Source: a virus (Duplodnaviria; Heunggongvirae; Uroviricota; Caudoviricetes). Taken from it: a stretch of DNA of 58,959 nucleotides. Positions 1 through 57,882 of the stretch are shown here, piece by piece; the first letter of the stretch is position 1; the number at the start of each line of letters is the position of its first letter. The notes below the pieces were generated by a model. The model had not been told where the DNA came from. It ran no database searches and was given only the letters and a program-made list of their open reading frames with translations. The stretch is taken from the IMG/VR virus record IMGVR_UViG_2541047708_000006. The stretch is one strand, 5' to 3'. The translations under genes and the position numbers were made by a program.

Positions 1-483
1 ATGACGAAGAAAAAAGCACATAAACCTGGTTCAGCGACCATCGCGCTTAACAAGCGCGCCCGTCACGAATACTTTATCGAAGAAGAGTTCGAAGCGGGAC
101 TTGCCCTGCAAGGCTGGGAGGTTAAATCCCTGCGCGCAGGAAAAGCCAATATCAGCGACAGCTATGTCCTTCTGCGCGACGGAGAGGCATTTCTGTTTGG
201 CGCTAACATCACGCCAATGGCTGTGGCCTCCACGCATGTGGTGTGCGATCCTACCCGTACCCGCAAGTTACTTCTCAACCAGCGCGAACTGGACTCATTG
301 TACGGTCGCGTCAATCGAGAAGGCTATACCGTAGTGGCGCTCTCCCTGTACTGGAAAAATGCCTGGTGCAAAGTGAAAATCGGCGTCGCCAAAGGTAAGA
401 AACAGCACGATAAACGTTCAGATATCAAAGAACGCGAATGGCAGGTGGATAAAGAGCGTATCATGAAAAATGCCCACCGTTAA
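1..483 (+). CDS. smpB: SsrA-binding protein SmpB
   Basis: 160 aa ORF; translation matches recalled E. coli SmpB; immediately upstream of tmRNA gene. Confidence 0.97.
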
Positions 484-697
484 ACCTATATAAGCGATAC
501 TAATCAAATCCTCACCGCGCCTCCCTATCCGGTGGCGCGAATGAACATCTTATCGACTGTCAAATCTGACACAGATGTAGCCATCCCATTGCTTAATCGA
601 AAAAAAATCATACTATGCAGGCGCTAATTCCAGGATGATAACGCCTTTTGGGCTAGTCATGCTGCTCATAAATCTGGTATACTTACCGTTACACATT

Positions 698-1060
698 GGG
701 GCTGATTCTGGATTCGACGGGATTTGCGAAACCCAAGGTGCATGCCGAGGGGCGGTTGGCCTCGTAAAAAGCCGCAAAAAATAGTCGCAAACGACGAAAA
801 CTACGCTTTAGCAGCTTAATAACCTGCTTAGAGCCCTCTCTCCCTAGCCTCCGCTCTTAGGACGGGGATCAAGAGAGGTCAAACCCAAAAGAGATCGCGT
901 GGAAGCCCTGCCTGGGGTTGAAGCGTTAAAACTTAATCAGGCTAGTTTGTTAGTGGCGTGTCCGTCCGCAGCTGGCAAGCGAATGTAAAGACTGACTAAG
1001 CATGTAGTACCGAGGATGTAGGAATTTCGGACGCGGGTTCAACTCCCGCCAGCTCCACCA
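698..1060 (+). ncRNA. ssrA: tmRNA (transfer-messenger RNA)
   Basis: Starts GGGGCTGATTCTGGATTCGACGGG, contains tag-reading-frame region, ends GGTTCAACTCCCGCCAGCTCCACCA; matches recalled E. coli ssrA. Confidence 0.95.
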
Positions 1061-1215
1061 ATCATGATTGGACGGTGTAAGGACAACACCAACAAAAACA
1101 GGATGTTAGCAGTCTCAGCAGGACACCGACCAGACGGTGAGGGGACAAAAAAGGATACGCAAAGGAGCCGCGGCTCTTTAGTTACATGAAAGCCCGCTAA
1201 TGCGGGCTTTTTTTA
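1034..1215 (+). repeat. Left copy of ~180 bp imperfect direct repeat (ssrA 3' end plus downstream terminator region); prophage attL
   Basis: Same sequence with scattered mismatches recurs at 57273-57451; about 90 percent identity by eye. Confidence 0.8.
1189..1215 (+). terminator. Rho-independent terminator downstream of ssrA
   Basis: Hairpin AAGCCCGC-TAA-TGCGGGCTT followed by T-run. Confidence 0.7.
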
Positions 1216-1228
1216 TGGGATAAGACAT

Positions 1229-2149
1229 ATGAACCAACTGCAAGAAATCATTCAGATACTAAGTACTGGTGATGAAGGCACAACAAATGCTCTCATAAAA
1301 ACGAAGATCCTTCTTTTCTCTATCGGGAAAAAGGAGCTTGCTGCATGGGTAAATCATGAGATAAACGGTTATCCTGATTCAGTTTCCCTTCCAGATTATA
1401 GAATTGTTGGCACAAGAATTCTTGCAGATCTGAATAACGGCGTTCGCCTATATAGAGCTTTTCCGTTACCGATTGGTTATCTAAGTGAAGATGACTATGA
1501 AGATGCTACAACCAGTAATGTGAGGCTTTCAATCAGTCAAATCGAAGAACTAGTGACCAATGCTGGTGATAGCCATGCTCTTCAGCAGCCAATTCCTTTA
1601 GATTACGCGTTAGTTAAGTACTGCAAAGGTATCGATAAAGGCTATGAGTTAACACGCTGTTATAAAGAGATCGCACTACATAACTTTACTTCCATCTTAA
1701 CTCAGGTCAGGTCACGGCTACTTGATTTTATACTTGAACTTTCTGATCAAGTTTCTGAAATACCAGATGAGAAAAACATGACAGAAAAACTTAAAAATAT
1801 CGACACGTCTTCATTATTCCATAACTCAATTTTTGGAGACAATACTGTCATAAACTTCGGAAATGAAAACTCATTTTCTGTGAATAACCACGTCGTAAAA
1901 AACGACACTGAGTCATTAAAAGAGTTTCTCTCAGCTCAGGGGTTCCCTAAATCTGATGTTAACGATTTAGAAATTGCTATTGGTGAAGATGGCCCGATAG
2001 CTAACAAACGTGGTGAATATGGTCAATCTGTTAGTAAATGGTTGGCAAATATTGCGAGTAAAGCAGCCCATGGTACTTTGGGCATAGGAATAGCTGCTGC
2101 AACTCAAGCAGCTACAGCGGCTCTGAAAAAATACTACGGTCTATCATAA
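1229..2149 (+). CDS. Hypothetical AT-rich cargo protein (306 aa), possibly abortive-infection-like
   Basis: Long ORF with ATG 14 bp after terminator; AT-rich codon usage unlike core genes; no motif I can assign firmly. Confidence 0.7.
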   Translation: MNQLQEIIQILSTGDEGTTNALIKTKILLFSIGKKELAAWVNHEINGYPDSVSLPDYRIVGTRILADLNNGVRLYRAFPLPIGYLSEDDYEDATTSNVRLSISQIEELVTNAGDSHALQQPIPLDYALVKYCKGIDKGYELTRCYKEIALHNFTSILTQVRSRLLDFILELSDQVSEIPDEKNMTEKLKNIDTSSLFHNSIFGDNTVINFGNENSFSVNNHVVKNDTESLKEFLSAQGFPKSDVNDLEIAIGEDGPIANKRGEYGQSVSKWLANIASKAAHGTLGIGIAAATQAATAALKKYYGLS

Positions 2150-2152
2150 CCA

Positions 2153-2197
2153 TCATGGGGTGTCGGGGGTCGGAGGTTCAAATCCTCTCGTGCCGAC
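2153..2197 (+). other. tRNA-Pro 3' fragment (anticodon-stem/T-arm/acceptor 3' strand), likely att remnant
   Basis: TCATGGGGTGTCGGGGGTCGGAGGTTCAAATCCTCTCGTGCCGAC matches recalled 3' part of E. coli proL tRNA; 5' half absent, CCA absent. Confidence 0.55.
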
Positions 2198-2212
2198 AAA
2201 AAATCCCTTAAG

Positions 2213-2240
2213 AACCAGCCTATTATGGCTGGTTTTTTTA
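2213..2240 (+). terminator. Rho-independent terminator
   Basis: AACCAGCC-TATTAT-GGCTGGTT hairpin followed by T7. Confidence 0.65.
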
Positions 2241-2407
2241 TGATTGTTTTTTATGCGGAGAAATACCGGGGAATAATTGGGGTAAAACACCTTTAGGCTA
2301 TTCACTTAGCCTACCACCATCAAAATCTTTCCGAATGTATCCATCTCTTTTTTCTTATGCAGCTAAAACGAAGTCTTGATACTGTTTATTTACACAGATA
2401 AGAATAA

Positions 2408-2427
2408 TACTGTCTACAAACGCAGTA
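2408..2427 (+). promoter_or_regulatory. Putative LexA (SOS) box
   Basis: TACTGTCTACAAACGCAGTA fits TACTG-N10-CAGTA; 14 bp upstream of dinI-like ATG at 2441. Confidence 0.55.
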
Positions 2428-2440
2428 CAAAAGAAGTGTT

Positions 2441-2688
2441 ATGCGTATTGAGATCTCCATAGCCAAAGACAAAATGACCAAATGCCAAACGGTGCTGTGG
2501 ATGCGTTAAAGGAAGAATTAACTCGACGCATCAGTAAGCGTTATGACGATGTAGAGGTGATCGTAAAAGCCACCAGCAACGATGGCCTTTCTGTTACGCG
2601 CACCGCCGATAAAGATTCAGCTAAAACTTTTGTTCAGGAAACTCTGAAAGATACCTGGGAGTCTGCTGACGAGTGGTTTGTTCACTAA
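2441..2688 (+). pseudogene. dinI-like gene with apparent -1 frameshift after codon 14 (ORF track shows only 2482-2688)
   Basis: ATG at 2441 encodes [14 protein letters not shown] (DinI N-terminus) then stops; the rest of the DinI-like protein (PNGAVDAL...[10 protein letters not shown]) continues in another frame from 2482; shift lies in an A-run. Confidence 0.55.
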
Positions 2689-3296
2689 TTAACACGTAAA
2701 ATCGGTAACGGCTGGAAATCATTCAATACTCGCACTATCGGAAGTTCACCAGCCAACCGCAGCACGTTCTTGCATACGACGTGTCTGCGGTTTTTCAACC
2801 ATTTAGATACAGCACTCTCATCGCATTCATTCTTCCGCATTAAAGTATATATGACCATATCACCTTAATATTTTTCTTCTTCAGATAAAAATTGTTATCT
2901 ATGTATACTTTTAAACCGAATCCGTGTAGAGTCTCTACCTAAGTTAGTTCACAGTTACCCCTTCAGTTTGCGCCATTAACCTCCTGACTTTTGCCGCTAT
3001 CTGTAAGCATTCCTGTATACCTGAAACTACAGGGGTCATCTACGAACTTTAAGAACACCCAGGATAAAAATTGTCAACTATATTATATATAACACCATAC
3101 TAATTCGAGGTTATATGAACAGCATACTGATAATCACTTCACTACTTATCATATTCAGCATTTTTGGTCATGCTCTAATAAAATTAGGGATTGGCATATC
3201 CAATAACCCGGACAAAACCGATGTATAAGTCAACATATCCTTAATCAGACATACAATATTGCAATGAAAACCAATAATATTTTAAGGAATATCTTC

Positions 3297-3530
3297 ATGA
3301 AATCAAAAGACACCCTAAAGTGGTTCCCTGCGCAGCTTCCTGAAGTCAGAATTATCCTGGGAGATGCTGTCGTGGAAGTAGCAAAACAGGGAAGACCTAT
3401 CAATACCAGAACATTGCTTGATTACATTGAAGGAAACATAAAGAAAAAGTCATGGCTGGATAACAAAGAATTATTACAAACAGCGATATCAGTTCTTAAA
3501 GACAACCAAAATTTAAATGGTAAAGTGTAA
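3297..3530 (+). CDS. YdfK/YnaE-like small protein
   Basis: MKSKDTLKWFPAQLPEVRIILGDAVVEV... resembles recalled prophage proteins YdfK/YnaE that sit next to pin in Qin/Rac; RBS AAGGAA before ATG 3297. Confidence 0.7.
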   Translation: MKSKDTLKWFPAQLPEVRIILGDAVVEVAKQGRPINTRTLLDYIEGNIKKKSWLDNKELLQTAISVLKDNQNLNGKV

Positions 3531-3904
3531 CCCCCCTGAAAAATAATTTTTTAATGCATTAAAAAATATCAACAACTACGTTATCCCTCAACAACCTACT
3601 TTTTTACCATTTTTCCACTTTAACAACATTTTGCTCCACTTTTCCACGACCAAACAACTTGAAATCTGGTTAAAATAACATACAACACTATTATTCGTCT
3701 TCCTCGAGTCCGCCCGGATTTCGAAAAACAAACCGAGTTAAAGCCATTTTTCAAAAAATCGATTTTGGGTTACACCAAAATTACGGGACTGCATCCGAAT
3801 TCGTTTATTTTCGAACGTATACATACAAATATGTACAATAATAAGCGAAATAATTTTTGGATATGCATTATGATATGTACACCAATTTCGTATAGAGTCT
3901 CACT

Positions 3905-4495
3905 ATGTCTCGAATTTTTGCTTACTGTCGGATATCAACTCTGGATCAGACCACCGAAAATCAACGCCGGGAAATCGAAAGTGCAGGTTTTAAAATCAAA
4001 CCTCAGCAAATAATCGAAGAACACATTAGCGGCTCAGCAGCAACCAGTGAGCGTCCTGGTTTTAACCGGTTGCTTGCTCGCCTGAAATGTGGTGATCAAT
4101 TGATTGTGACAAAACTGGATCGCCTTGGTTGTAATGCAATGGATATCAGGAAAACAGTGGAACAACTGACCGAAACAGGTATCAGAGTGCATTGCTTAGC
4201 ATTGGGGGGCATTGACCTGACCAGTCCAACAGGAAAAATGATGATGCAAGTAATTTCAGCAGTCGCTGAATTTGAACGAGACCTTTTACTTGAACGCACT
4301 CATTCCGGGATAGTAAGAGCCCGGGGCGCAGGGAAACGTTTTGGTCGACCACCTGTGTTAAATGAAGAACAGAAACAGGTGGTATTCGAACGAATTAAGT
4401 CAGGTGTAAGTATAAGTGCCATTGCCCGGGAATTCAAAACCTCGCGGCAAACCATTTTAAGAGCCAAAGCAAAACTTCAGACACCTGACATATAA
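3905..4495 (+). CDS. pin: Serine recombinase, DNA invertase (Pin/Gin/Hin family)
   Basis: 196 aa; N-terminal catalytic serine motif YCRISTLDQ; C-terminal HTH; adjacent to tail fibre genes. Confidence 0.9.
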
Positions 4496-4722
4496 AAAAT
4501 AATCTCGGTGTGAGATGCTTTACGTCTTCCAAGCCCCCTTCCTTGCCGTAAATGGAAAGATACATCTAATTATAGAATTTATATGTTTTACCCTACGGCA
4601 GTGCTGGCCATTCAATATCCTGTGCAGTTGACGTATCAACACGGTTCAGCAACACCCGATACTTTTTCCAGGCTTCCAGCAACGGGGTTTCTTCCTCCGT
4701 TGCATATACAGCTCACCTTTTT

Positions 4723-5016
4723 TCACCCACGATTAACCAACAGCCAGACCAGCAGACACGCCACCACCGGCACAGCAAAATCCATCAGGCTTGCCACATC
4801 CCAAGCACGCGGATCAAAACCGCCCCACCACGGCATATTCATTCGCTTGCCATGCCCGAACATTTCAATCCAGCGATATTCTGCCTGGGTATGTTCACGC
4901 GCAATGAAGAACGTACAACCGGCTATCGCTCCGTAAGCCCAGTTTCCGGTAAAAAGACCAACCAGTATCTGCGCAGCCACAGCACAAAGTGCATGAAGTA
5001 AGGGGCTTATATCCAT
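4723..5016 (-). CDS. Small putative membrane protein
   Basis: 97 aa with two hydrophobic segments; downstream of tail fibre operon. Confidence 0.5.
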   Translation of the reverse strand: MDISPLLHALCAVAAQILVGLFTGNWAYGAIAGCTFFIAREHTQAEYRWIEMFGHGKRMNMPWWGGFDPRAWDVASLMDFAVPVVACLLVWLLVNRG

Positions 5017-5028
5017 TATTTCCTCCTT

Positions 5029-5307
5029 TCAGCTCCATTCCCGAAGCGGTGTTTCCAGCTCCACGACATAATCAGAGAATACAGAAACATCAAACAAGTC
5101 ATCAAGAATGCGAATGTTGACAAAATAACCATCATTCCGGATACAGACAGGTTCTCCCTCTTCTGTTACCCCTGTTTCTGTGTAGGTGAAACCAATTTCA
5201 TCAACTAACAGTTTATTCTGGAGGTCTTCATCTTCCGCCCAGCCAAGAGATGACAGGAAGGCCTTAAACTGCAGTTTGTCATAAAACTTCAAAGTTAAAT
5301 CTTTCAT
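5029..5307 (-). CDS. Small protein downstream of tail fibre gene (possible fibre chaperone)
   Basis: 92 aa ORF overlapping the stf stop by 4 nt (coupled); not a canonical Tfa. Confidence 0.5.
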   Translation of the reverse strand: MKDLTLKFYDKLQFKAFLSSLGWAEDEDLQNKLLVDEIGFTYTETGVTEEGEPVCIRNDGYFVNIRILDDLFDVSVFSDYVVELETPLREWS

Positions 5308-7370
5308 ACGACCTCTTTTAATTGCCTGTCATTTAATTCTTTATGCCATATGCGGAAATTGCGAATATGGCCAAACAGATGTCGTTCTCCAGTATTCGTC
5401 TGCCCTCCAAATCGGATATTTTTATCAGCGGTCACGCCATTATATTCACAATAAACTTCATTAACCGCTTTACCATTTGTCACCACATGAAAGTGACCAT
5501 CAGCTTTTGCAATACATCCAAATGTGGTTTTCTCTGCAAATACATCTGTCGCTGCGCTATTAACATACGAGCCTGAAGGGTTTGACAGACTCATATATAA
5601 CTTACCACTACCTCTGTTGATTGCTGCAATTGCTGATTGCCCGGTATTGGCTGCTGCTATATCCCACACGCGGGGTGCGGCGTTTGGTGCAATATCCCAG
5701 TTTTTATGAATCTCAAGTAAAAAAGTAAATGGTAACTTATAAAGATTATTTCTGGTGGGGATACTAACCAAATCACTGGCTCTTGTCGTTGCGCTGCCTC
5801 CTGAAATAATAAATGATGATACACACGGCCCATTCTCTACTTGTGGGGTGGCAAGATAAATATAGTCACCAGATACTGTTGCCCCACCCTGCTCAGGAGA
5901 ATACTGTATCTGAGAGCCTATTTTTAACTCACCATCAATTGCCTGAATCGTTGCCTCTGCAAAAATCCAGCCTGTGGTCTTATCCTTCCTGACTCGTGCC
6001 GTAATTCTGCCGGCAGCACCACCTGTCATATTAATTTCAAGCGTTTGCGTATCAATGTACGCATCGCCAAGAAAAGTTGTTGCACTACCATCATACTTAT
6101 CAAACCGTATACGTAACCTTACCTGTCGTTCTGTTTTAAAACGGCATGAGGTTGTCACGTACTTGTTATCGCCTGAGACATCAACTGACTTTGTTGCAGC
6201 AATTGATGCCATATTAATAGCCGAAGTTTGCCCAACCAGAGAATCGTTGCAGACAAACTTTCCATAAGTAAAACCAAAACTATCCGTCCCGGTTTCGGGC
6301 ACATCCATGTTTGATGACTTCCCCCAGCTGGCTGGACTTTCCGAATTGAGCATGTAGTTCGTTCTTTGTCCCTCAATAAGCAGGCCATCACACTCAAATC
6401 GCGGCTCATTAATTTCCGCCGTTTTCAGTTCGCCAGATTTGTTGATATATGTTGCCGTTGATGCGCGACTGAAATTAACCTGTTTATCACTGGCGACCTG
6501 AACCACATCGTCACCAATAGCTATTTTTTTATAGCCCGGAGAAAAACCCGCAATCATATCCAGTGAATCGTTAAACGGTATCCACACATCAGGCAGCGGC
6601 GGCACTATATTCGCATAGGGCTCTGCAGTCACTTCCGCTGCGACTTCTGCGCGGTCTGCCGCCTTTTCAGCCCGTGTCGCTGCCGACAGAGCCTCATCCT
6701 TTTTCTGCCCGGCCTTTGTTGCGTCTGCTGCGGCCTCCCGCGCTTTTGTGGTGGCGACTCCGGCATTTTCAGCGGCTGACTCTGCATTACGGCGGGAAGC
6801 CTCTTCACTGTCTGCGGAGGCTTCTTCTGACGCACGGGCATTTGTCTCTGAACGTTCTGCCGCTGTTGCTGCGTTTTGTGCGGCTGTTTTTGAAGAAGCT
6901 GCCGCTTTCGCGCTGTTACCTGCATTCGTCTCTGATGTTTTCGCCGCATTCCTGGACGATGCCGCTGCTGTTTCTGATTTCTTTGCTGCCGCTGCGCTCT
7001 GAGAGGCGGCTTCAGCGTTGCGTGCCACCTCTTCCACCATCTTTTCAAAACGATACAGTGCCTCCGGACGAACATCATCTTCTGTTGCAGCGCCCAGAAA
7101 ATCATTCAATGTCCCCGGCTTAGAATCCTCATACACGGTGATAGCCCCGGCATGTGAAGGCGGAAAACCTTCAACCAGCAGGATAACGCTGTACTGGCCA
7201 TACTCGACATCCATGCTGTAACGTCCGGCTTCATCCGGATTTTCTGAGGCCACCGTGTTCACCACAACCGTGGTGCTGTTACGTTTTGCTTTGAGCTGAA
7301 TGGTGCAGTTCTGTATCGGTTTTCCTGCACCGTCTTTCAGCACGCCTGAAATCTGTACTGCCATATTCAC
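5304..7370 (-). CDS. stf: Side tail fibre protein (lambda Stf-like N-terminus, Ala/Ser-rich shaft, divergent C-terminal domain)
   Basis: N-terminus MAVQISGVLKDGAGKPIQNCTIQLKA... matches recalled lambda Stf; low-complexity Ala-rich middle. Confidence 0.9.
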   Translation of the reverse strand: MNMAVQISGVLKDGAGKPIQNCTIQLKAKRNSTTVVVNTVASENPDEAGRYSMDVEYGQYSVILLVEGFPPSHAGAITVYEDSKPGTLNDFLGAATEDDVRPEALYRFEKMVEEVARNAEAASQSAAAAKKSETAAASSRNAAKTSETNAGNSAKAAASSKTAAQNAATAAERSETNARASEEASADSEEASRRNAESAAENAGVATTKAREAAADATKAGQKKDEALSAATRAEKAADRAEVAAEVTAEPYANIVPPLPDVWIPFNDSLDMIAGFSPGYKKIAIGDDVVQVASDKQVNFSRASTATYINKSGELKTAEINEPRFECDGLLIEGQRTNYMLNSESPASWGKSSNMDVPETGTDSFGFTYGKFVCNDSLVGQTSAINMASIAATKSVDVSGDNKYVTTSCRFKTERQVRLRIRFDKYDGSATTFLGDAYIDTQTLEINMTGGAAGRITARVRKDKTTGWIFAEATIQAIDGELKIGSQIQYSPEQGGATVSGDYIYLATPQVENGPCVSSFIISGGSATTRASDLVSIPTRNNLYKLPFTFLLEIHKNWDIAPNAAPRVWDIAAANTGQSAIAAINRGSGKLYMSLSNPSGSYVNSAATDVFAEKTTFGCIAKADGHFHVVTNGKAVNEVYCEYNGVTADKNIRFGGQTNTGERHLFGHIRNFRIWHKELNDRQLKEVV

Positions 7371-38906: not shown

Positions 38907-39138
38907 TAAGCAAAAAAGCTCCCGAAGGAGCCTTCATTTTCACTTTCTTAAATCTAACGACAGATGGCTAACATTTAAGTATTGTGAAATATTATCAAAT
39001 GTAATCATCATTGATTTACAAAAGATACATTTTGCCCCGAAAGGATTTCTGTCAGAAACATCAAAAGATGATGTTCTATACTGAGAACCATGGCAACACG
39101 GGCATCTAAAGTGAATATGGTTTGTAATATTTTCTACC

Positions 39139-39351
39139 TCAAAGTGCCACTACATGAACAGCTGCAGGGCCTTTAGGTCCGTTCTCAATACCAAATTCGA
39201 CTTCCTGATTCTCAGTTAACGTTTTGAAATCGTTGCTCTGAATAGCTGAGAAATGCACAAACACATCTTTGCTACCATCTTTCGGCGTGATGAAACCAAA
39301 ACCTTTTTCAGGGTTAAACCATTTCACTAAACCAGTCATTTTGTTAGACAT
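39139..39351 (-). CDS. Cold-shock protein (CspA family)
   Basis: [19 protein letters not shown]...[11 protein letters not shown] motifs. Confidence 0.9.
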
Positions 39352-39714
39352 CATTATTACCTTTTGAAGAAGTTAGCCCTTGGGCAGAATGGTCCGAAAA
39401 AAAATATCAGAGAGAAAAACCAACAAGAAAATCTCAAGAGGTACAAATAATAAAATTATAACAATGACTGCTTCAGATAATTTTGTAACAAACCAGAACA
39501 CCATTAACGCATGATTAACCAACCATAGCAAGGATTACTTTTGTAAAGAAAAACACACGAATGAAACAATAGCTTTATTTATTAATAAAACGTGTCATTC
39601 TGTCTAATGACCTTTTATCTTACCCTTAAGATTTCAAGGATTTTGACTCATGGAAGAGTCCTTTTTATTTAAATTTCACATTCAGCGCTAAAAATAATCC
39701 GATTTAATATTAAT

Positions 39715-42312: not shown

Positions 42313-42587
42313 GTGGTACTTTTTGTGGGAGTCATCCACTTACGCACTTTGTTTTGCTATGCCAGCAGTTAGCTTCTGCTGTAAAACTATTCATGCAGCA
42401 AACCTGCACTTCACCACAATGGTTAGCATACTTTTCCTGATTAAGTTATTGCCAAATATGCTGGCCATTGTTTCATGTATTGGACCTCCTTACTATTTAT
42501 TAAAGAGATCCAATATTCACCACTCTGTCTGTATCTCCACTCAGGCATCAGCCTTCTTCGTTATCGTATACAGACAAACTATGAATT

Positions 42588-42803
42588 TTAATCAGTAATT
42601 ATGACATTTGCTGCTGCAGGACCTTTAGCACCACTCTCTACAGAGAAGGTAACCTTTTGACCTTCAAATAAGGTTCGAAAATTATCATTCTGAATCGCAG
42701 AAAAATGCACAAACACATCTTTACTACCATCAACAGGAGAAATAAAGCCAAAACCTTTATCAGCGTTAAACCATTTTACTAAACCAGTCATTTTATTTGA
42801 CAT
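42588..42803 (-). CDS. Cold-shock protein (CspA family)
   Basis: [21 protein letters not shown]... Confidence 0.9.
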
Positions 42804-43103
42804 TCTACATTCCTTAACTTGAGCCTTTCGGCATAAATGGCTTGTATAACAGAAACGACTTCGTACTTAATTGGAGAGACTCAAAGAAGGAATAAGTGAA
42901 TAACACCTGAAATGAGAACTGCTTTAGTAAACTACTTCGTATATCGTCTGTTCTTCAAACCGACGCAATCATTAACGCATAGTTGAACATATGAAGCAAT
43001 GTTTATTTTAGACATCCAGCCATCTTCAACCCCATCAAAAAACTATAGCTTTCTTCAGGAACGTGTGTATAGTGCGCCCAGTTATCAGTATTAAGGAATT
43101 TTT

Positions 43104-54261: not shown

Positions 54262-54507
54262 ATGTTGCTCCCGTGTGCAGACGGGATAATGGAGAAACGT
54301 ATGCTGAACCTCGATTGTGTTCCTATCTCAACTTATTGCAAAGAAACTGGCGAAACTCCTGAAGCAATAAACAAACGTGTACAGCGCGGTGTTTGGCGTG
54401 AAGGTGTTCAGGTTTTAAAGGTTGAAGGCGTTAAGGAGAGGTGGATTGATCTTAGTGAGGTTGCAAAATGGGCCAGACAAAACTGCTCAAACTACCGCGC
54501 GGCGTAA
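54262..54507 (+). CDS. xis: Putative excisionase
   Basis: 81 aa ORF overlapping int start; position upstream of int; weak motif. Confidence 0.45.
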   Translation: MLLPCADGIMEKRMLNLDCVPISTYCKETGETPEAINKRVQRGVWREGVQVLKVEGVKERWIDLSEVAKWARQNCSNYRAA

Positions 54508-55640
54508 CAATCAGGAAACACCACCAGGGAGAAACGATCAATATAACTTTCACCTACAAAGGAGTTAGATGTCGTGAGCCGCTTTCCAATCTGGAAGTAA
54601 CACCAAAGAACATTAAATACGCCGAGCGTACACTCGGCGAAATCCATAATAAGATCGAAAGGGGAACATTCATTTATGCAGAATATTTTCCCCGTTCTGC
54701 TCGTTTGAAAATTTTTGGTAATGCTGCTGCAAGCAAAACGGTAAAGATGTACCTAGACGAATATCTTGAAATCTGCGAAACAAGAAAACTTTCACCCTCT
54801 ACGATTGGTGGCTATAAAAAATGCCGTAGTGCGTTAGCCTCACTTCACATTTGCCCTGCAAGTGAATTAACACCAGCAACCCTGAAAGCGTGGATTCAAA
54901 GCCAGAAAACAACCTTAAAAACCATTCGCAACCAGTTATCTTTCCTACGGTCAGCACTTGATGAAGCCGTGACCGATGGGGTACTTCAAATTAACCCCGT
55001 ATCGTTAGTAACAGCTTCGCGCTACCAAAGTGATAAGTCAGAAGCAGAAAGCAGCTATGTGGTTGATCCGCTATCACCAGCAGAAGTTGATGCATTACTA
55101 GCAGCAGCCGGAAACAAACAATGGGAAAATCTGTTCCGGTTCGCCATACATACAGGCCTGCGTAGTTCTGAATTATGTGCCCTACGATGGCATGATATCG
55201 ACTTTGTTGGAAAAACAGCCCATGTTCAGAGCGCAAGTGTTGTCGGAGTTATCAAAGGAACAAAGACAAAAGCCGGTACCCGTAAAGTTGAACTGACTGA
55301 AGAAGCAATGTTGGCGTTGATAAACCAGAAGCCATTTACATTCATGAAGGATGCTACTGTCTTTGAAGATCCAAAGACCAATAAACCCTGGGCAAGTGCT
55401 GATGCAATCAGGAAAAAAGCATGGGTGCCAACATTGCGAAAAGCAGGTATTCGTTACAGAAATCCATATCAAACTAGGCATACATTCGCCACCCGCCATA
55501 TCAGCCGGGGAGCAAACCTGTTTTGGCTTGCAGCTCAAATGGGGCATAAAGGGCCGGAAATGTTATTTCGTCATTATGGTTCATATTTAAAGGAATATGA
55601 CGGTAATACGACCAGCAATATCACAAAAAAAGCCACTTAA
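54468..55640 (+). CDS. int: Prophage tyrosine integrase
   Basis: 390 aa; C-terminal RHTFATRH...GH...FRHYGSY catalytic motifs. Confidence 0.9.
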   Translation: MGQTKLLKLPRGVTIRKHHQGETINITFTYKGVRCREPLSNLEVTPKNIKYAERTLGEIHNKIERGTFIYAEYFPRSARLKIFGNAAASKTVKMYLDEYLEICETRKLSPSTIGGYKKCRSALASLHICPASELTPATLKAWIQSQKTTLKTIRNQLSFLRSALDEAVTDGVLQINPVSLVTASRYQSDKSEAESSYVVDPLSPAEVDALLAAAGNKQWENLFRFAIHTGLRSSELCALRWHDIDFVGKTAHVQSASVVGVIKGTKTKAGTRKVELTEEAMLALINQKPFTFMKDATVFEDPKTNKPWASADAIRKKAWVPTLRKAGIRYRNPYQTRHTFATRHISRGANLFWLAAQMGHKGPEMLFRHYGSYLKEYDGNTTSNITKKAT

Positions 55641-55653: not shown

Positions 55654-56043
55654 TTAGGAGGCTCTCGATTTAAGCATTTCCGTACACTTAGCAAAGAGCC
55701 TCTCAGTTGTTAGAATCGCAACTTCAGACTGTTTAGAAGTGACCGATTGATCAAGTCGATAGTCTGCAACAATCCTCTGAGCTTTAAGTTGACTCAGGAT
55801 AAAACTAATCCCTTTTAGATATCTAGCTTCATATACTTCACTTCCTCTTGAAGCATCACCCTGCAAATAATTGATTAGCCCCTGATGACTGTCTTTCGGC
55901 CCGTTTACCATACAAGGCAAGACATGATGGTAAGCGCCATAGTAGGATCTTGCTATAGCATTTCGATAGCCGATTTCGTCATTACGTTGATGACAGTCTT
56001 TTGCAAAACCGAGAAAATCTTGACTATTAACCGGCATGTGCAA
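55654..56043 (-). CDS. Hypothetical protein, possible HEPN-like fold (second gene of two-gene operon)
   Basis: 129 aa; helical; RSYYGAYHH segment; overlaps upstream gene by 17 nt. Confidence 0.6.
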   Translation of the reverse strand: MHMPVNSQDFLGFAKDCHQRNDEIGYRNAIARSYYGAYHHVLPCMVNGPKDSHQGLINYLQGDASRGSEVYEARYLKGISFILSQLKAQRIVADYRLDQSVTSKQSEVAILTTERLFAKCTEMLKSRAS

Positions 56044-56842
56044 CCCTCCGGGTAATCAGACCTAATTCGGAGATAGCATTCTGCTCAATATGAGTGTCTT
56101 TACATTCAAACCAAACAGTAAAATCTTTACCGACTAAACAATCGTGCTCAGCCATTGAAAAAGCAAGCTCAATATTCATATCAGCGATTTGTTCAGCATC
56201 AGAAGACTTTGTCATGAATACAATCGCATTCACTTTCTCTTCCGAAATATTATAAAAACGCATTCCCGAAAGATGAACCTTCTGAGAATCCATGACATTG
56301 GCTACATTATTGAAAATAAGTTCATATTCTAAACCAGAAAGATCGGCACGTTGCTTAAAGGATTCGACCTGGGAAACAACTTCATCAAAATTGTTGTCCA
56401 TTTTTTCAGGCTCCTTATCTCCGAACAATTTAGAGTATGACTGGAAATACTTCTCCGCCAACGCCATTTTCCCCATAAAGAGGGAGTTTTCATAAGCTTG
56501 AAGATAAATAAACGGGGATACGAAGCTTTCAGCAAGCTTAATGCTTGTTTCAAAGCTTTTCTTCAACGTACCGTAATCTGACAAGAAAACAAGAAAATTC
56601 TTTGCAACAACCTTATTATGGCATACCTGCAAGGAACGCTCAAAGAAGCCTATCGCCTCATTCACTTGACCATGTGCACCATAGACCAACGCTAAAAGAT
56701 AGTCCTCAGAGACAGGATCTCTAATTGCTTCAATCTCACGTAACATCCTTCTAAAGTTAAAGTCATCAATCCTCACTCCATCTTTGAGGTATTTAGTTAG
56801 CCCCGCGCTAATAACTGATGCTTTTTTTGCTGGCTGCAACAT
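56027..56842 (-). CDS. Hypothetical protein (first gene of two-gene operon between int and attR)
   Basis: 271 aa ORF, AT-rich, AT-rich promoter region upstream (56843-57270). Confidence 0.6.
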   Translation of the reverse strand: MLQPAKKASVISAGLTKYLKDGVRIDDFNFRRMLREIEAIRDPVSEDYLLALVYGAHGQVNEAIGFFERSLQVCHNKVVAKNFLVFLSDYGTLKKSFETSIKLAESFVSPFIYLQAYENSLFMGKMALAEKYFQSYSKLFGDKEPEKMDNNFDEVVSQVESFKQRADLSGLEYELIFNNVANVMDSQKVHLSGMRFYNISEEKVNAIVFMTKSSDAEQIADMNIELAFSMAEHDCLVGKDFTVWFECKDTHIEQNAISELGLITRRVAHAG

Positions 56843-57272
56843 TAAAAACCTTATCTTACAAATAGTTGGTAATGATGTTGAATTATTTTTTGTTCTTTAT
56901 GGCTAATAAGATTACATGAAGGGACAACTTCTGGCCACCTTAGAAAACACTCACTTTAGTAACAAGAGTCAATAATATTGTTGACAAATCACAAAAAAAC
57001 AAACTTATCCAAAACAATCTGGTTTATTACAAAGCCTCTGTGCATAAATCTGTGTATAACATCATTTTTACACACATTTTTATAAAAATATTTTTTAGCA
57101 AAAAATGCTATCTATCTCCGAAACTGCAACCACAAACCATTAATTCCAAATGAAACTATTTTAAAATAAATAGTAAGACAGTAACAGGACGGAAAAAGTT
57201 CCGCAAAAGAGCCGCGTGTAAAATCAACAATATTTGGCTATTTAAATTCAATGAATTACATAACTATGGACA

Positions 57273-57451
57273 CGGGTTCAACTCCCGCCAGCTCCACCAA
57301 TCATGATTGGACGGTGTAAGGACTACACCAACAAAAACAGGAAGTTATAAGTCTCAGCAGGACACCGACCAGACGGTGAGGAGACAAAAAAGGATACGCA
57401 ACGGAGTCGCGACTCCCTATGACATTAAAGCCCGCTGATGCGGGCTTTTTT
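57273..57451 (+). repeat. Right copy of direct repeat: partial ssrA 3' end (57273-57299) plus downstream region; prophage attR
   Basis: CGGGTTCAACTCCCGCCAGCTCCACCA then sequence paralleling 1061-1215 with scattered mismatches. Confidence 0.8.
57427..57451 (+). terminator. Rho-independent terminator (duplicate of ssrA terminator)
   Basis: AAGCCCGC-TGA-TGCGGGCTT plus T-run. Confidence 0.6.
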
Positions 57452-57882
57452 ATTGGTCCTGACCCGCCCTGAATAGAATTCATCCAATTACAGTCCAGAC
57501 ATATACAGTATCCCTCAGCTCAGTATCAGCTTCTCGACAAATGGTCACTGTTATTTACCCGTTGCCAGAAAGAGAATAATTTGCCCCCATAGCCAGCCTT
57601 CCTGGAATCTGTATATTCATTAATATTGTTATCGATTCCATCAAGTAACATAGGTTGGATGCGATTGATCTTACTCACATTAGTCGACACGGAACTCAGT
57701 AAGTTGAACTCTGAAAAAGCAGTTTAAATAGCATTTAAACAAATGCCACCAGTTCGAAAAAGAGTATAAGCACACTTAATATATTGTTTTAATTATTCAT
57801 TTCCTTTCAACCCAATTCTTATCCCTCACATTATTTGTTATTAATTTGTTGTTTTTGATCACAATAAGAAAACAATATGTAA

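Follow-up and report, generated by a model that had tools for sequence, protein, structure and literature searches.

The fragment of the tRNA-Pro(GGG) gene proL at positions 2149–2207 of the window is, with a probability of roughly 0.8, the fossil core of an attachment site (attP) of a proL-integrating phage. It survives, together with its P' arm, in a mosaic prophage whose integration site is now ssrA and whose integrase is unrelated to those of proL phages. The window is the whole stretch of DNA that was analysed (58,959 nt). It showed 100% identity to assemblies of uropathogenic E. coli CFT073 and corresponds to the smpB-ssrA region of this strain.

The window and its resident prophage

The following features were recognized in the window.

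1–483: smpB
698–1060, + strand: ssrA (tmRNA) gene, called by ARAGORN and matched by Rfam RF00023 (295.8 bits); its 3' end is the attL core
1029–1218, + strand: prophage attL, made of the ssrA 3' end (core) and a phage-borne P' arm of about 155 nt; direct repeat with 57268–57455
1229–2149, + strand: ORF of 306 aa with an AbiTii domain (Pfam PF18864, 3e-33; PADLOC AbiTii, 4.5e-33)
2149–2207, + strand: orphan proL' core of tRNA-Pro(GGG), positions 27–77 plus 8 nt downstream, 57/59 identical
2208–2793, + strand: rest of the proL-type P' arm module, including a frameshifted DinI-like gene (ORF 2482–2688; Pfam DinI, 6.9e-20)
2210–2243, + strand: terminator-like hairpin and T-run (terminator scan: 11 pairs, 5 of them G-C; the hairpin itself occupies 2210–2237)
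3905–4495: serine recombinase, a small invertase-type protein (Resolvase + HTH_7) beside tail fibre genes
54468–55640, + strand: tyrosine integrase of the prophage, ssrA-type (Pfam Arm-DNA-bind_2 + Phage_integrase)
57268–57455, + strand: attR, an orphan ssrA 3' fragment followed by the native ssrA downstream region and then csiD

Repeats of the ssrA 3' end were found at both ends of the phage gene set, with the ssrA-type integrase next to attR. The direct repeat is about 190 nt long (1029–1218 versus 57268–57455) and contains an exact run of 51 nt from position 1034. It spans the T-arm, the acceptor end and about 155 nt downstream of ssrA, including a hairpin and a T-run; the final 25 nt of ssrA were found once more in the window, at 57275–57299. 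Minus-strand tail fibre and host-specificity genes, an invertase and a tyrosine integrase lie between the repeats. Since these repeats flank a phage gene set of about 56 kb with an integrase, a lambdoid prophage of this size sits in ssrA, with the complete ssrA gene adjoining its tail end and the orphan ssrA fragment its integrase end. Phage LLS, in which attP is annotated in a 'tmRNA pseudogene', offers a comparison: its attP region shows 89.6% identity to positions 1022–1213, and its integrase shares 86% identity with the integrase of the window.

The P' arm of attL imitates the sequence downstream of ssrA, down to a hairpin and T-run at about 1189–1216. The att repeat is unusually long: the sequence duplicated beyond the ssrA 3' end shows about 93% identity and includes the terminator-like hairpin. 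The phage therefore carries a mimic of the region downstream of ssrA, as proL phages mimic the proL terminator.

Extent and limits of the proL' fragment

Positions 2153–2197 were compared without gaps with proL of strains K-12, E3 and CFT073, all three of which are identical, and matched proL positions 31–75 at 45 of 45 nucleotides. The original prediction had placed about 45 nt of a proL-type tRNA-Pro here, from the anticodon region through the acceptor 3' strand with the T-loop GGTTCAAATCC; both coordinates and description were accurate. It had proposed a tRNA scan and an alignment with genomic proL as checks, and the match was neither shorter nor weaker than it had appeared by eye. The longer fragment (2149–2207) runs from the anticodon-stem 5' strand to 8 nt past CCA; it departs from proL only at 2152 (G30A) and at 2198 (C76A), where CCA becomes CAA. 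A chance match was ruled out by the 45/45 identity and by a 23-mer of the fragment that occurs once in the window and in none of 100 shuffles. A BLAST search of 5,426 complete E. coli genomes placed positions 2149–2241 on the proL locus of nearly every one, at 87–90% identity.

The tRNA 5' half upstream of position 27 is absent, as had been predicted: the sequence there is the 3' end of the AbiTii ORF and agrees with the tRNA at 6 of 26 positions, which is the chance level. No tRNA was called at the fragment by ARAGORN, and the Rfam tRNA model gave only a sub-threshold match to the T-arm (12.3 bits, against a threshold of 29 bits). The missing 5' half, the lack of an ARAGORN call and the sub-threshold Rfam score rule out a complete or degenerate tRNA gene at 2149–2207. 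The 3' part is identical to host proL, and a complete cloverleaf, with acceptor 5' strand, D arm and anticodon stem 5' strand, was not found. The location inside the prophage was also correctly foreseen; the fragment lies 1.1 kb from attL.

The hairpin that follows resembles the one after chromosomal proL and is of the phage type (CCAGCC...GGCTGG), not of the native proL type (CCAACC...GGTTGG). RNA folding of 2147–2250 gave −39.5 kcal/mol (z = −4.4). The hairpin at 2210–2237 is likely the terminator of the AbiTii transcript, judging from its sequence and position, and it is also well placed to insulate the LexA-box promoter of the DinI-like gene. Two good LexA-box-like sequences, at 2380–2399 and 2408–2427 (TACTGTTTATTTACACAG, TACTGTCTACAAACGCAGTA), precede this gene. 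Compared with full-length DinI, its ORF has a frameshift near the start, and the gene is marked as frameshifted in RefSeq. Rightward of 2376, the sequence is common to many lambdoid prophages.

Comparison with attachment sites of proL-integrating phages

In the Campbell model, for tRNA att sites of the anticodon-loop class, attP carries the tRNA sequence from the anticodon loop to the 3' end. The fragment of the window has this form: a block from the anticodon loop to the tRNA 3' end is followed by a phage-type terminator and a P' arm. By blastn, positions 2149–2793 were 91% identical overall to strains E3 and O18, and 98.8–99.4% identical over the first 332 nt. In E3, a complete proL at yejM runs straight into an arm that is 98.8% identical to 2149–2480 and homologous up to 2793. 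Sixteen kb further on, at the far end, come a proL-type integrase and an orphan proL' attR (...GGTGA|CATGGGGTGTC...CCA), followed by the native proL downstream sequence and then yejO/narP. This is a standard attL/attR pair, from which it follows that identity in this phage family begins in the region of the anticodon loop and that the arm in the window is a P' arm.

The free phages Eeyore and Flotzy have the same layout: an integrase, 132–139 nt, the same core, a phage-type hairpin, a UmuD-like gene and DinI. Right of UmuD/DinI, Eeyore carries an invertase and tail fibre genes and Flotzy a tail fibre gene, in the order seen right of the fragment in the window. The block of core and arm was present in both at 81–82% identity, and in many IMG/VR loci. 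When IMG/VR was scanned for the exact 46-nt core, at least 120 loci were found. Among the matches listed, about 45 had a proL-type integrase (71–100% identical to the E3/Eeyore family) 110–1,900 nt left of the exact core; the proL-type integrases are 76–99% identical to each other. The original prediction, which read the fragment as the footprint of a tRNA-integrating attP and proposed a search for the same junction in proL-integrated elements, is borne out by the E3 proL-prophage junction and by the layout of Eeyore and Flotzy. Its further claim, that this end of the prophage recombined with a proL-integrating element or captured a module from one, is also supported: a proL-type core and P' arm are present, yet the prophage uses the ssrA site and an unrelated integrase.

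No match to the E3, Eeyore and Flotzy integrases was obtained in the whole window (tblastn, E ≤ 0.01), so that a second integrase cognate to proL was rejected. The sole integrase of the window is of the ssrA type and showed no significant similarity to these proL-type integrases. Because no proL-type integrase is encoded in the window, the fragment is an orphan att core without its cognate recombinase. To the left of the core lies sequence that codes for AbiTii and does not resemble the P arms of E3, Eeyore and Flotzy; given the order integrase-AbiTii-core in the metagenomic element L029/L170, a coding left arm is conceivable in principle. The relic, as the fragment is called below, is bordered by ssrA and AbiTii to its left and by phage genes (DinI, tail) to its right, where an attL or attR at proL would have yejM or yejO/narP on one side.

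A short segment left of the crossover separates the relics from the sampled phage sites. The 5 nt at this position are CCATC in CFT073, O18 and other relics, CCGTC in native proL, and GTGAC, GTGTC or GCGTC in attPs adjacent to an integrase. The relic may thus descend from an attL or an attB-like site, and not from any of the sampled attPs. In summary of this comparison, the relic and the proL attP (Eeyore, Flotzy, the E3 remnant) share the same 46-nt segment of tRNA-Pro(GGG) from anticodon loop to CCA, the same phage-type hairpin and the gene order to the right (DinI, invertase, tail fibres), with the E3 attL arm at 98.8% over 332 nt. They differ in that the relic has AbiTii and an ssrA-type attP to its left instead of a cognate integrase or P arm, CCATC instead of GTGAC left of the crossover, and CCA mutated to CAA.

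Recurrence of the layout and the cargo slot

CFT073 is not alone in having the relic: more than 100 E. coli genomes and many IMG/VR prophages show the order ssrA', cargo, proL'. The CFT073-type junction was found in 13 complete E. coli genomes. The O18-type junction was found in 108 genomes; here ssrA and the same arm of about 155 nt are followed by 2.7 kb of different genes and then by the relic and the DinI arm at 99% identity. The AR436 type (23–25 genomes) has a 93.5%-identical AbiTii gene, followed in the same register by decayed copies of core, hairpin and arm; like the L151-type copies, these share about 75% identity with the copy in CFT073. Among the IMG/VR matches listed, about 54 loci had an exact core and a phage-type right arm, with no callable tRNA and no proL-type integrase to the left, and six were true attL junctions with a complete tRNA. 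In several of these IMG/VR loci, a tmRNA gene or an ssrA 3' end lies 1–2 kb to the left. The relic was not detected in the free ssrA-type phage LLS within 8 kb around attP, so not all phages of this type carry it.

Since the layout recurs with different genes between conserved borders, the segment bounded by the end of the ssrA arm (1213) and the first base of the relic (2149) acts like a cargo slot. Three other genes occupy it in the O18 type, one matching the PD-T4-3 defence model (7e-137) and another the Aga_Helical-REase model. Just past the DinI-like gene of O18 lies a DUF262 protein with a full-length match to the model of a type IV methyl-directed restriction enzyme. With the slot genes on the left and this protein on the right (L005 5690–7843 and 8895–10784 in the ssrA prophage of O18), defence-type genes cluster on both sides of the relic.

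The AbiTii gene beside the relic

In the window, AbiTii is the sole gene between the active ssrA att site and the relic, and its stop codon (2147–2149) abuts the relic. Loci were also sampled by means of the AbiTii protein and not of the core, which gave 24 enterobacterial homologues with 43–100% amino acid identity; a search of the genome contigs gave 4 loci. A recognizable proL' core was found in 22 of the 24, starting 7–10 nt after the last sense codon, except for a later start in the two copies with the strongest decay (AR436-type L156 and L163). An ssrA 3' end lay about 190 nt upstream in at least 14 of these loci. Most cores had at most 1 mismatch in 46, including loci with AbiTii identities of 61–63% and 43%. 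Four loci had 2–4 mismatches, six were clearly decayed, and the core was absent from two (L167, L168).

The element L029/L170 combines an integrase of another family, AbiTii (43% identity), the core and an arm with three ATGGTGAAA repeats, and is an integrase-adjacent version of the AbiTii-core junction. Because the core follows AbiTii in divergent homologues and in this element, AbiTii may predate the joining of the ssrA module as the companion of the core, with which it may have travelled before. The original prediction is refined accordingly: the relic is part of the recurrent ssrA', cargo, proL' layout, and AbiTii is an old neighbour of the core.

The Pfam AbiTii domain covers residues 4–192 only. 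Residues from about 193 to 306 (window 1805–2149) have no domain match, and this C-terminal third ends in a glycine/alanine-rich hydrophobic stretch (GTLGIGIAAATQAATAAL). In published AbiTii fusions of other bacteria, HEPN RNase domains occupy the C-terminal position (PMC3710099).

The core as a recombination junction

The core is a recurrent recombination junction and is near-perfect in most loci while its neighbours diverge. CFT073, O18 and E3 have the right side in common at 99% and three unrelated left sides (AbiTii, PD-T4-3-type cargo and bacterial proL, respectively). Loci L158 and L159, in turn, are 99.8% identical over 900 nt left of the core; to its right, they agree at 90% over 93 nt, beyond which the two are unrelated. 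Relative to CFT073, the divergence at four-fold sites of AbiTii was 12% in L151, 17.5% in AR436 and 72% in L158, and the difference over the 141 nt downstream of AbiTii was 25%, 25% and 14%, respectively. As these two measures do not track each other, the left and right sides have uncoupled histories; for the same reason, a molecular clock based on AbiTii and the downstream region gave no date. A perfect core beside a saturated AbiTii cannot be an undisturbed neutral fossil.

The simplest reading of the perfect cores is that they are refreshed by recombination. Active proL phages would keep the 3' part of the tRNA perfect because integration must rebuild proL. Phages bearing the relic would repeatedly swap their tail-side arms with the pool of proL phages; the core, as the leftmost shared sequence, would be the leftmost site of crossover. 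In lineages that ceased to exchange, the core would decay.

Many relics have a conserved, non-functional pseudo-5' half left of the core, which resembles the proL 5' half (consensus CTGGCACATAGCAGCC...GGTAGC.C.CCGT). In IMG/VR it was found in loci L014, L016, L017, L021, L030, L050, L061, L068, L083, L098 and L107. The family is about 50 nt long (CTGGCACATAGCAGCC..TT.AGA.GGTAGC.C.CCGT) and has the appearance of a degenerate proL 5' half with an enlarged D-loop region; no tRNA was called. A captured host proL and an old attP left half are candidate origins. Homology of the left flank of the relic to the yejM-proL intergenic leader was considered and dropped, the TTAGCA-type resemblance being weak and not convincing.

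Proposed history and alternative explanations

If the fragment is a fossil attachment site, its history may be proposed as follows. In an active proL phage, attP would supply the tRNA part and the terminator, and integration would rebuild a working proL. In the CFT073 lineage, the side with the proL-type integrase would have been replaced by an ssrA-type module of integrase and attP, so that leftward from the relic the circular phage map would now read AbiTii, ssrA' attP, two ORFs and the ssrA-type integrase. Homologous, illegitimate and integrase-mediated recombination are all candidate routes for this join. Lacking a cognate integrase, the relic could presumably no longer direct integration. 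It would persist as the right-hand border of a short cargo slot (1214–2148) with a defence-type gene, and probably as the transcription terminator of AbiTii. Being a patch common to every proL-type phage, it would be kept fresh in some lineages by repeated module exchange and would decay in others. Two findings sit badly with the simplest form of this history. In most AbiTii-sampled loci the core shows no more than 1 mismatch in 46, although drift would be expected of a dead relic, so that refreshment or constraint is required; and the conserved pseudo-5' half of several relics is not predicted if only the 3' part of an attP was inherited. CCATC and the pseudo-5' half would be in keeping with descent from a site like attL or attB, and with exchange by integrases at the anticodon loop. 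One may go further, tentatively and with the odds against it, and regard the proL' core as a maintained site rather than a passive fossil. Together with the ssrA' arm it would frame a conserved defence-gene slot at the ends of enterobacterial lambdoid prophages, and it would be kept perfect through repeated crossover, by proL-type integrases using a secondary attB or by short-homology recombination, with swapping of tail/DinI arms and cargo.

It is unlikely that the relic is a still-usable landing pad for proL-type phages ('attB-in-prophage'), such that the present structure is the attL of a phage integrated into an older relic, the duplicated part having since been lost when guest and host prophage recombined. 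In favour of this are a nearly intact anticodon stem-loop (CCATC-ATGGGGT-GTCGG, versus CCGTC-ATGGGGT-GTCGG in attB) and, left of the crossover, bases that are closer to attB than to the sampled attPs. Conservation also shifts sharply at the anticodon loop, the left sides being old or variable and the right sides perfect with diverse P' arms, and attBs that lie at lambdoid prophage ends beside cargo loci and are used by other phages have been documented (PMC8112680). Against this, the partner junction (P arm of a proL phage, core and the present P' arm) was not found in 5,426 genomes, where two synthetic composite queries for such a prophage-in-prophage signature, covering two P-arm types (E3 and Eeyore), gave no full-length match. 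CFT073 and O18 each have just the relic and the native proL, and homologous exchange within the 46–54 nt of identity would yield the same pattern.

A role at the RNA level, with the tRNA-like 3' half kept because it serves the AbiTii mRNA as 3' UTR or processing element, or acts as a decoy or sensor of the tRNA-half kind tied to the defence gene, is far less probable still. It would account for the 7–10 nt spacing between core and stop of AbiTii homologues at 43 to 100% identity, and for a core far better conserved than AbiTii synonymous sites. The stable fold of 2147–2250 (z = −4.4) could be cited for it, but the predicted stability comes largely from the terminator hairpin; the fusion of AbiTii domains to HEPN RNase domains in other bacteria (PMC3710099) also points this way. 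Yet perfect cores lie behind unrelated cargo as well (the O18 slot, many IMG/VR loci) and in active attPs without AbiTii, while close AbiTii alleles tolerate decayed cores (AR436, L151/L152, L161–L163, L165) and L167 and L168 have none; no Rfam family matched. Two different tRNA-type att sequences 1.1 kb apart might also suggest a rearrangement of the CFT073 chromosome (an inversion or translocation involving ssrA and proL prophages), or the attR of a small element between ssrA and 2153. These deserve hardly any credence. A rearrangement between the ssrA and proL loci was ruled out because proL of CFT073 is intact and unoccupied between yejM and a yejO remnant, with no prophage there, and the same layout is found in over 100 unrelated genomes and viral contigs. 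As for a small element, 1061–2148 is not flanked by matching repeats; and the orientation and the phage-type right flank have the geometry of attL or attP, not of attR.

Relation to known systems

Temperate phages and satellites reportedly carry defence-gene hotspots at fixed positions, as described for P2 and P4 by Rousset and colleagues in 2022. The slot beside the relic is similar in being short, with conserved borders and different anti-phage genes (AbiTii in CFT073; PD-T4-3 and an Aga_Helical-REase-like ORF in O18). It is unlike these hotspots in that tRNA-like sequences derived from att sites form both of its borders (ssrA' plus P' arm on one side, the proL' core on the other) and that the defence role is putative. 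A sublocation scheme for tRNA att sites is said to have been set out by Williams in 2002, with orphan 3' tRNA fragments at the distal junction (attR) of islands and prophages. Such fragments resemble the relic, since they too are tRNA segments from anticodon loop to 3' end duplicated by site-specific integration, and the E3 attR is a direct example. An attR fragment, though, has native bacterial DNA after it and the integrase end before it, whereas the relic has phage DNA after it and cargo before it and lies at a different locus, ssrA.

An attB inside a prophage permits integration of one prophage into another (Nakamura et al., 2021, PMC8112680). Like the relic, the sites of that study are host-like att sequences at the very end of a lambda-like prophage, by an exchangeable cargo locus and beside the att site actually used. 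The relic differs in having a phage-type P' arm, which makes it attP- or attL-like and not a bare attB with chromosomal flanks; in the lack of an integrated phage in the 5,426 genomes (E3- and Eeyore-type P arms); and in its cargo, a defence-type gene and not T3SS effectors (PMC8112680). A literature search on att relics of proL or ssrA returned nothing specific, and the AbiTii papers gave domain context only.

An orphan att relic is a known kind of feature, and the recurrent layout with defence cargo between ssrA' and proL', together with the junction behaviour of the core, is a modestly interesting addition. For CFT073, an unannotated tRNA-like fragment is thereby explained, and the ssrA prophage is seen to be a hybrid whose tail-side arm was drawn from the proL-integrating phages. 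In general terms, an old attachment site can outlast the switch of a phage to another integration site. Relics that mark fixed borders of small anti-phage cargo slots may help to delimit prophage modules and to predict defence hotspots. They could also mislead programs that call prophage boundaries from tRNA or att sequences; PGAP calls the comparable E3 attR fragment a tRNA-Pro. If the core is indeed actively used for crossover, it would be a concrete example of att sequences anchoring recombination in phage mosaicism.

Additional observations

In E3, the orphan fragment annotated by PGAP (attR at proL, L007 27523–27600) is 78 nt long, and ARAGORN made no call there. The P-arm side of the E3 phage (CGGCGCG...) is complementary to the acceptor 3' strand, so that its attP looks like a full-length tRNA-like sequence.

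In strain 25-07338 (L004 1–5000), an S8 peptidase, an AAA ATPase and a SMEK-domain gene, not ssrA, precede an ssrA' fragment, AbiTii and a decayed relic. The arrangement points to a tandem insertion of a second element at ssrA; the 98 nt ahead of the ssrA' fragment are similar to positions 2696–2793 of the window. In the IMG/VR locus L114 (1–3300), a 5' portion of dusA is followed by an integrase, a Bro-N-like ORF and an exact proL' core with a hairpin of the CCAACC...GGTTGG type; from this order, proL' fragments occur also in elements apparently integrated at dusA.

Two minus-strand ORFs lie between the integrase and attR of the window, at 55654–56043 (129 aa) and 56027–56842 (271 aa), in what is a second cargo position across the att site. 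Neither had a Pfam or PADLOC match. E3 and phage LLS have unrelated ORFs at the same position, and no relatedness was found in comparisons of the ORFs between integrase and attR or of ssrA- with proL-type integrases. Finally, Rfam matched two cspA thermoregulators on the minus strand inside the prophage, at 39093–39509 (107.5 bits) and 42525–42964 (156.5 bits); the prophage thus carries cold-shock-protein genes with 5' UTR thermosensors.
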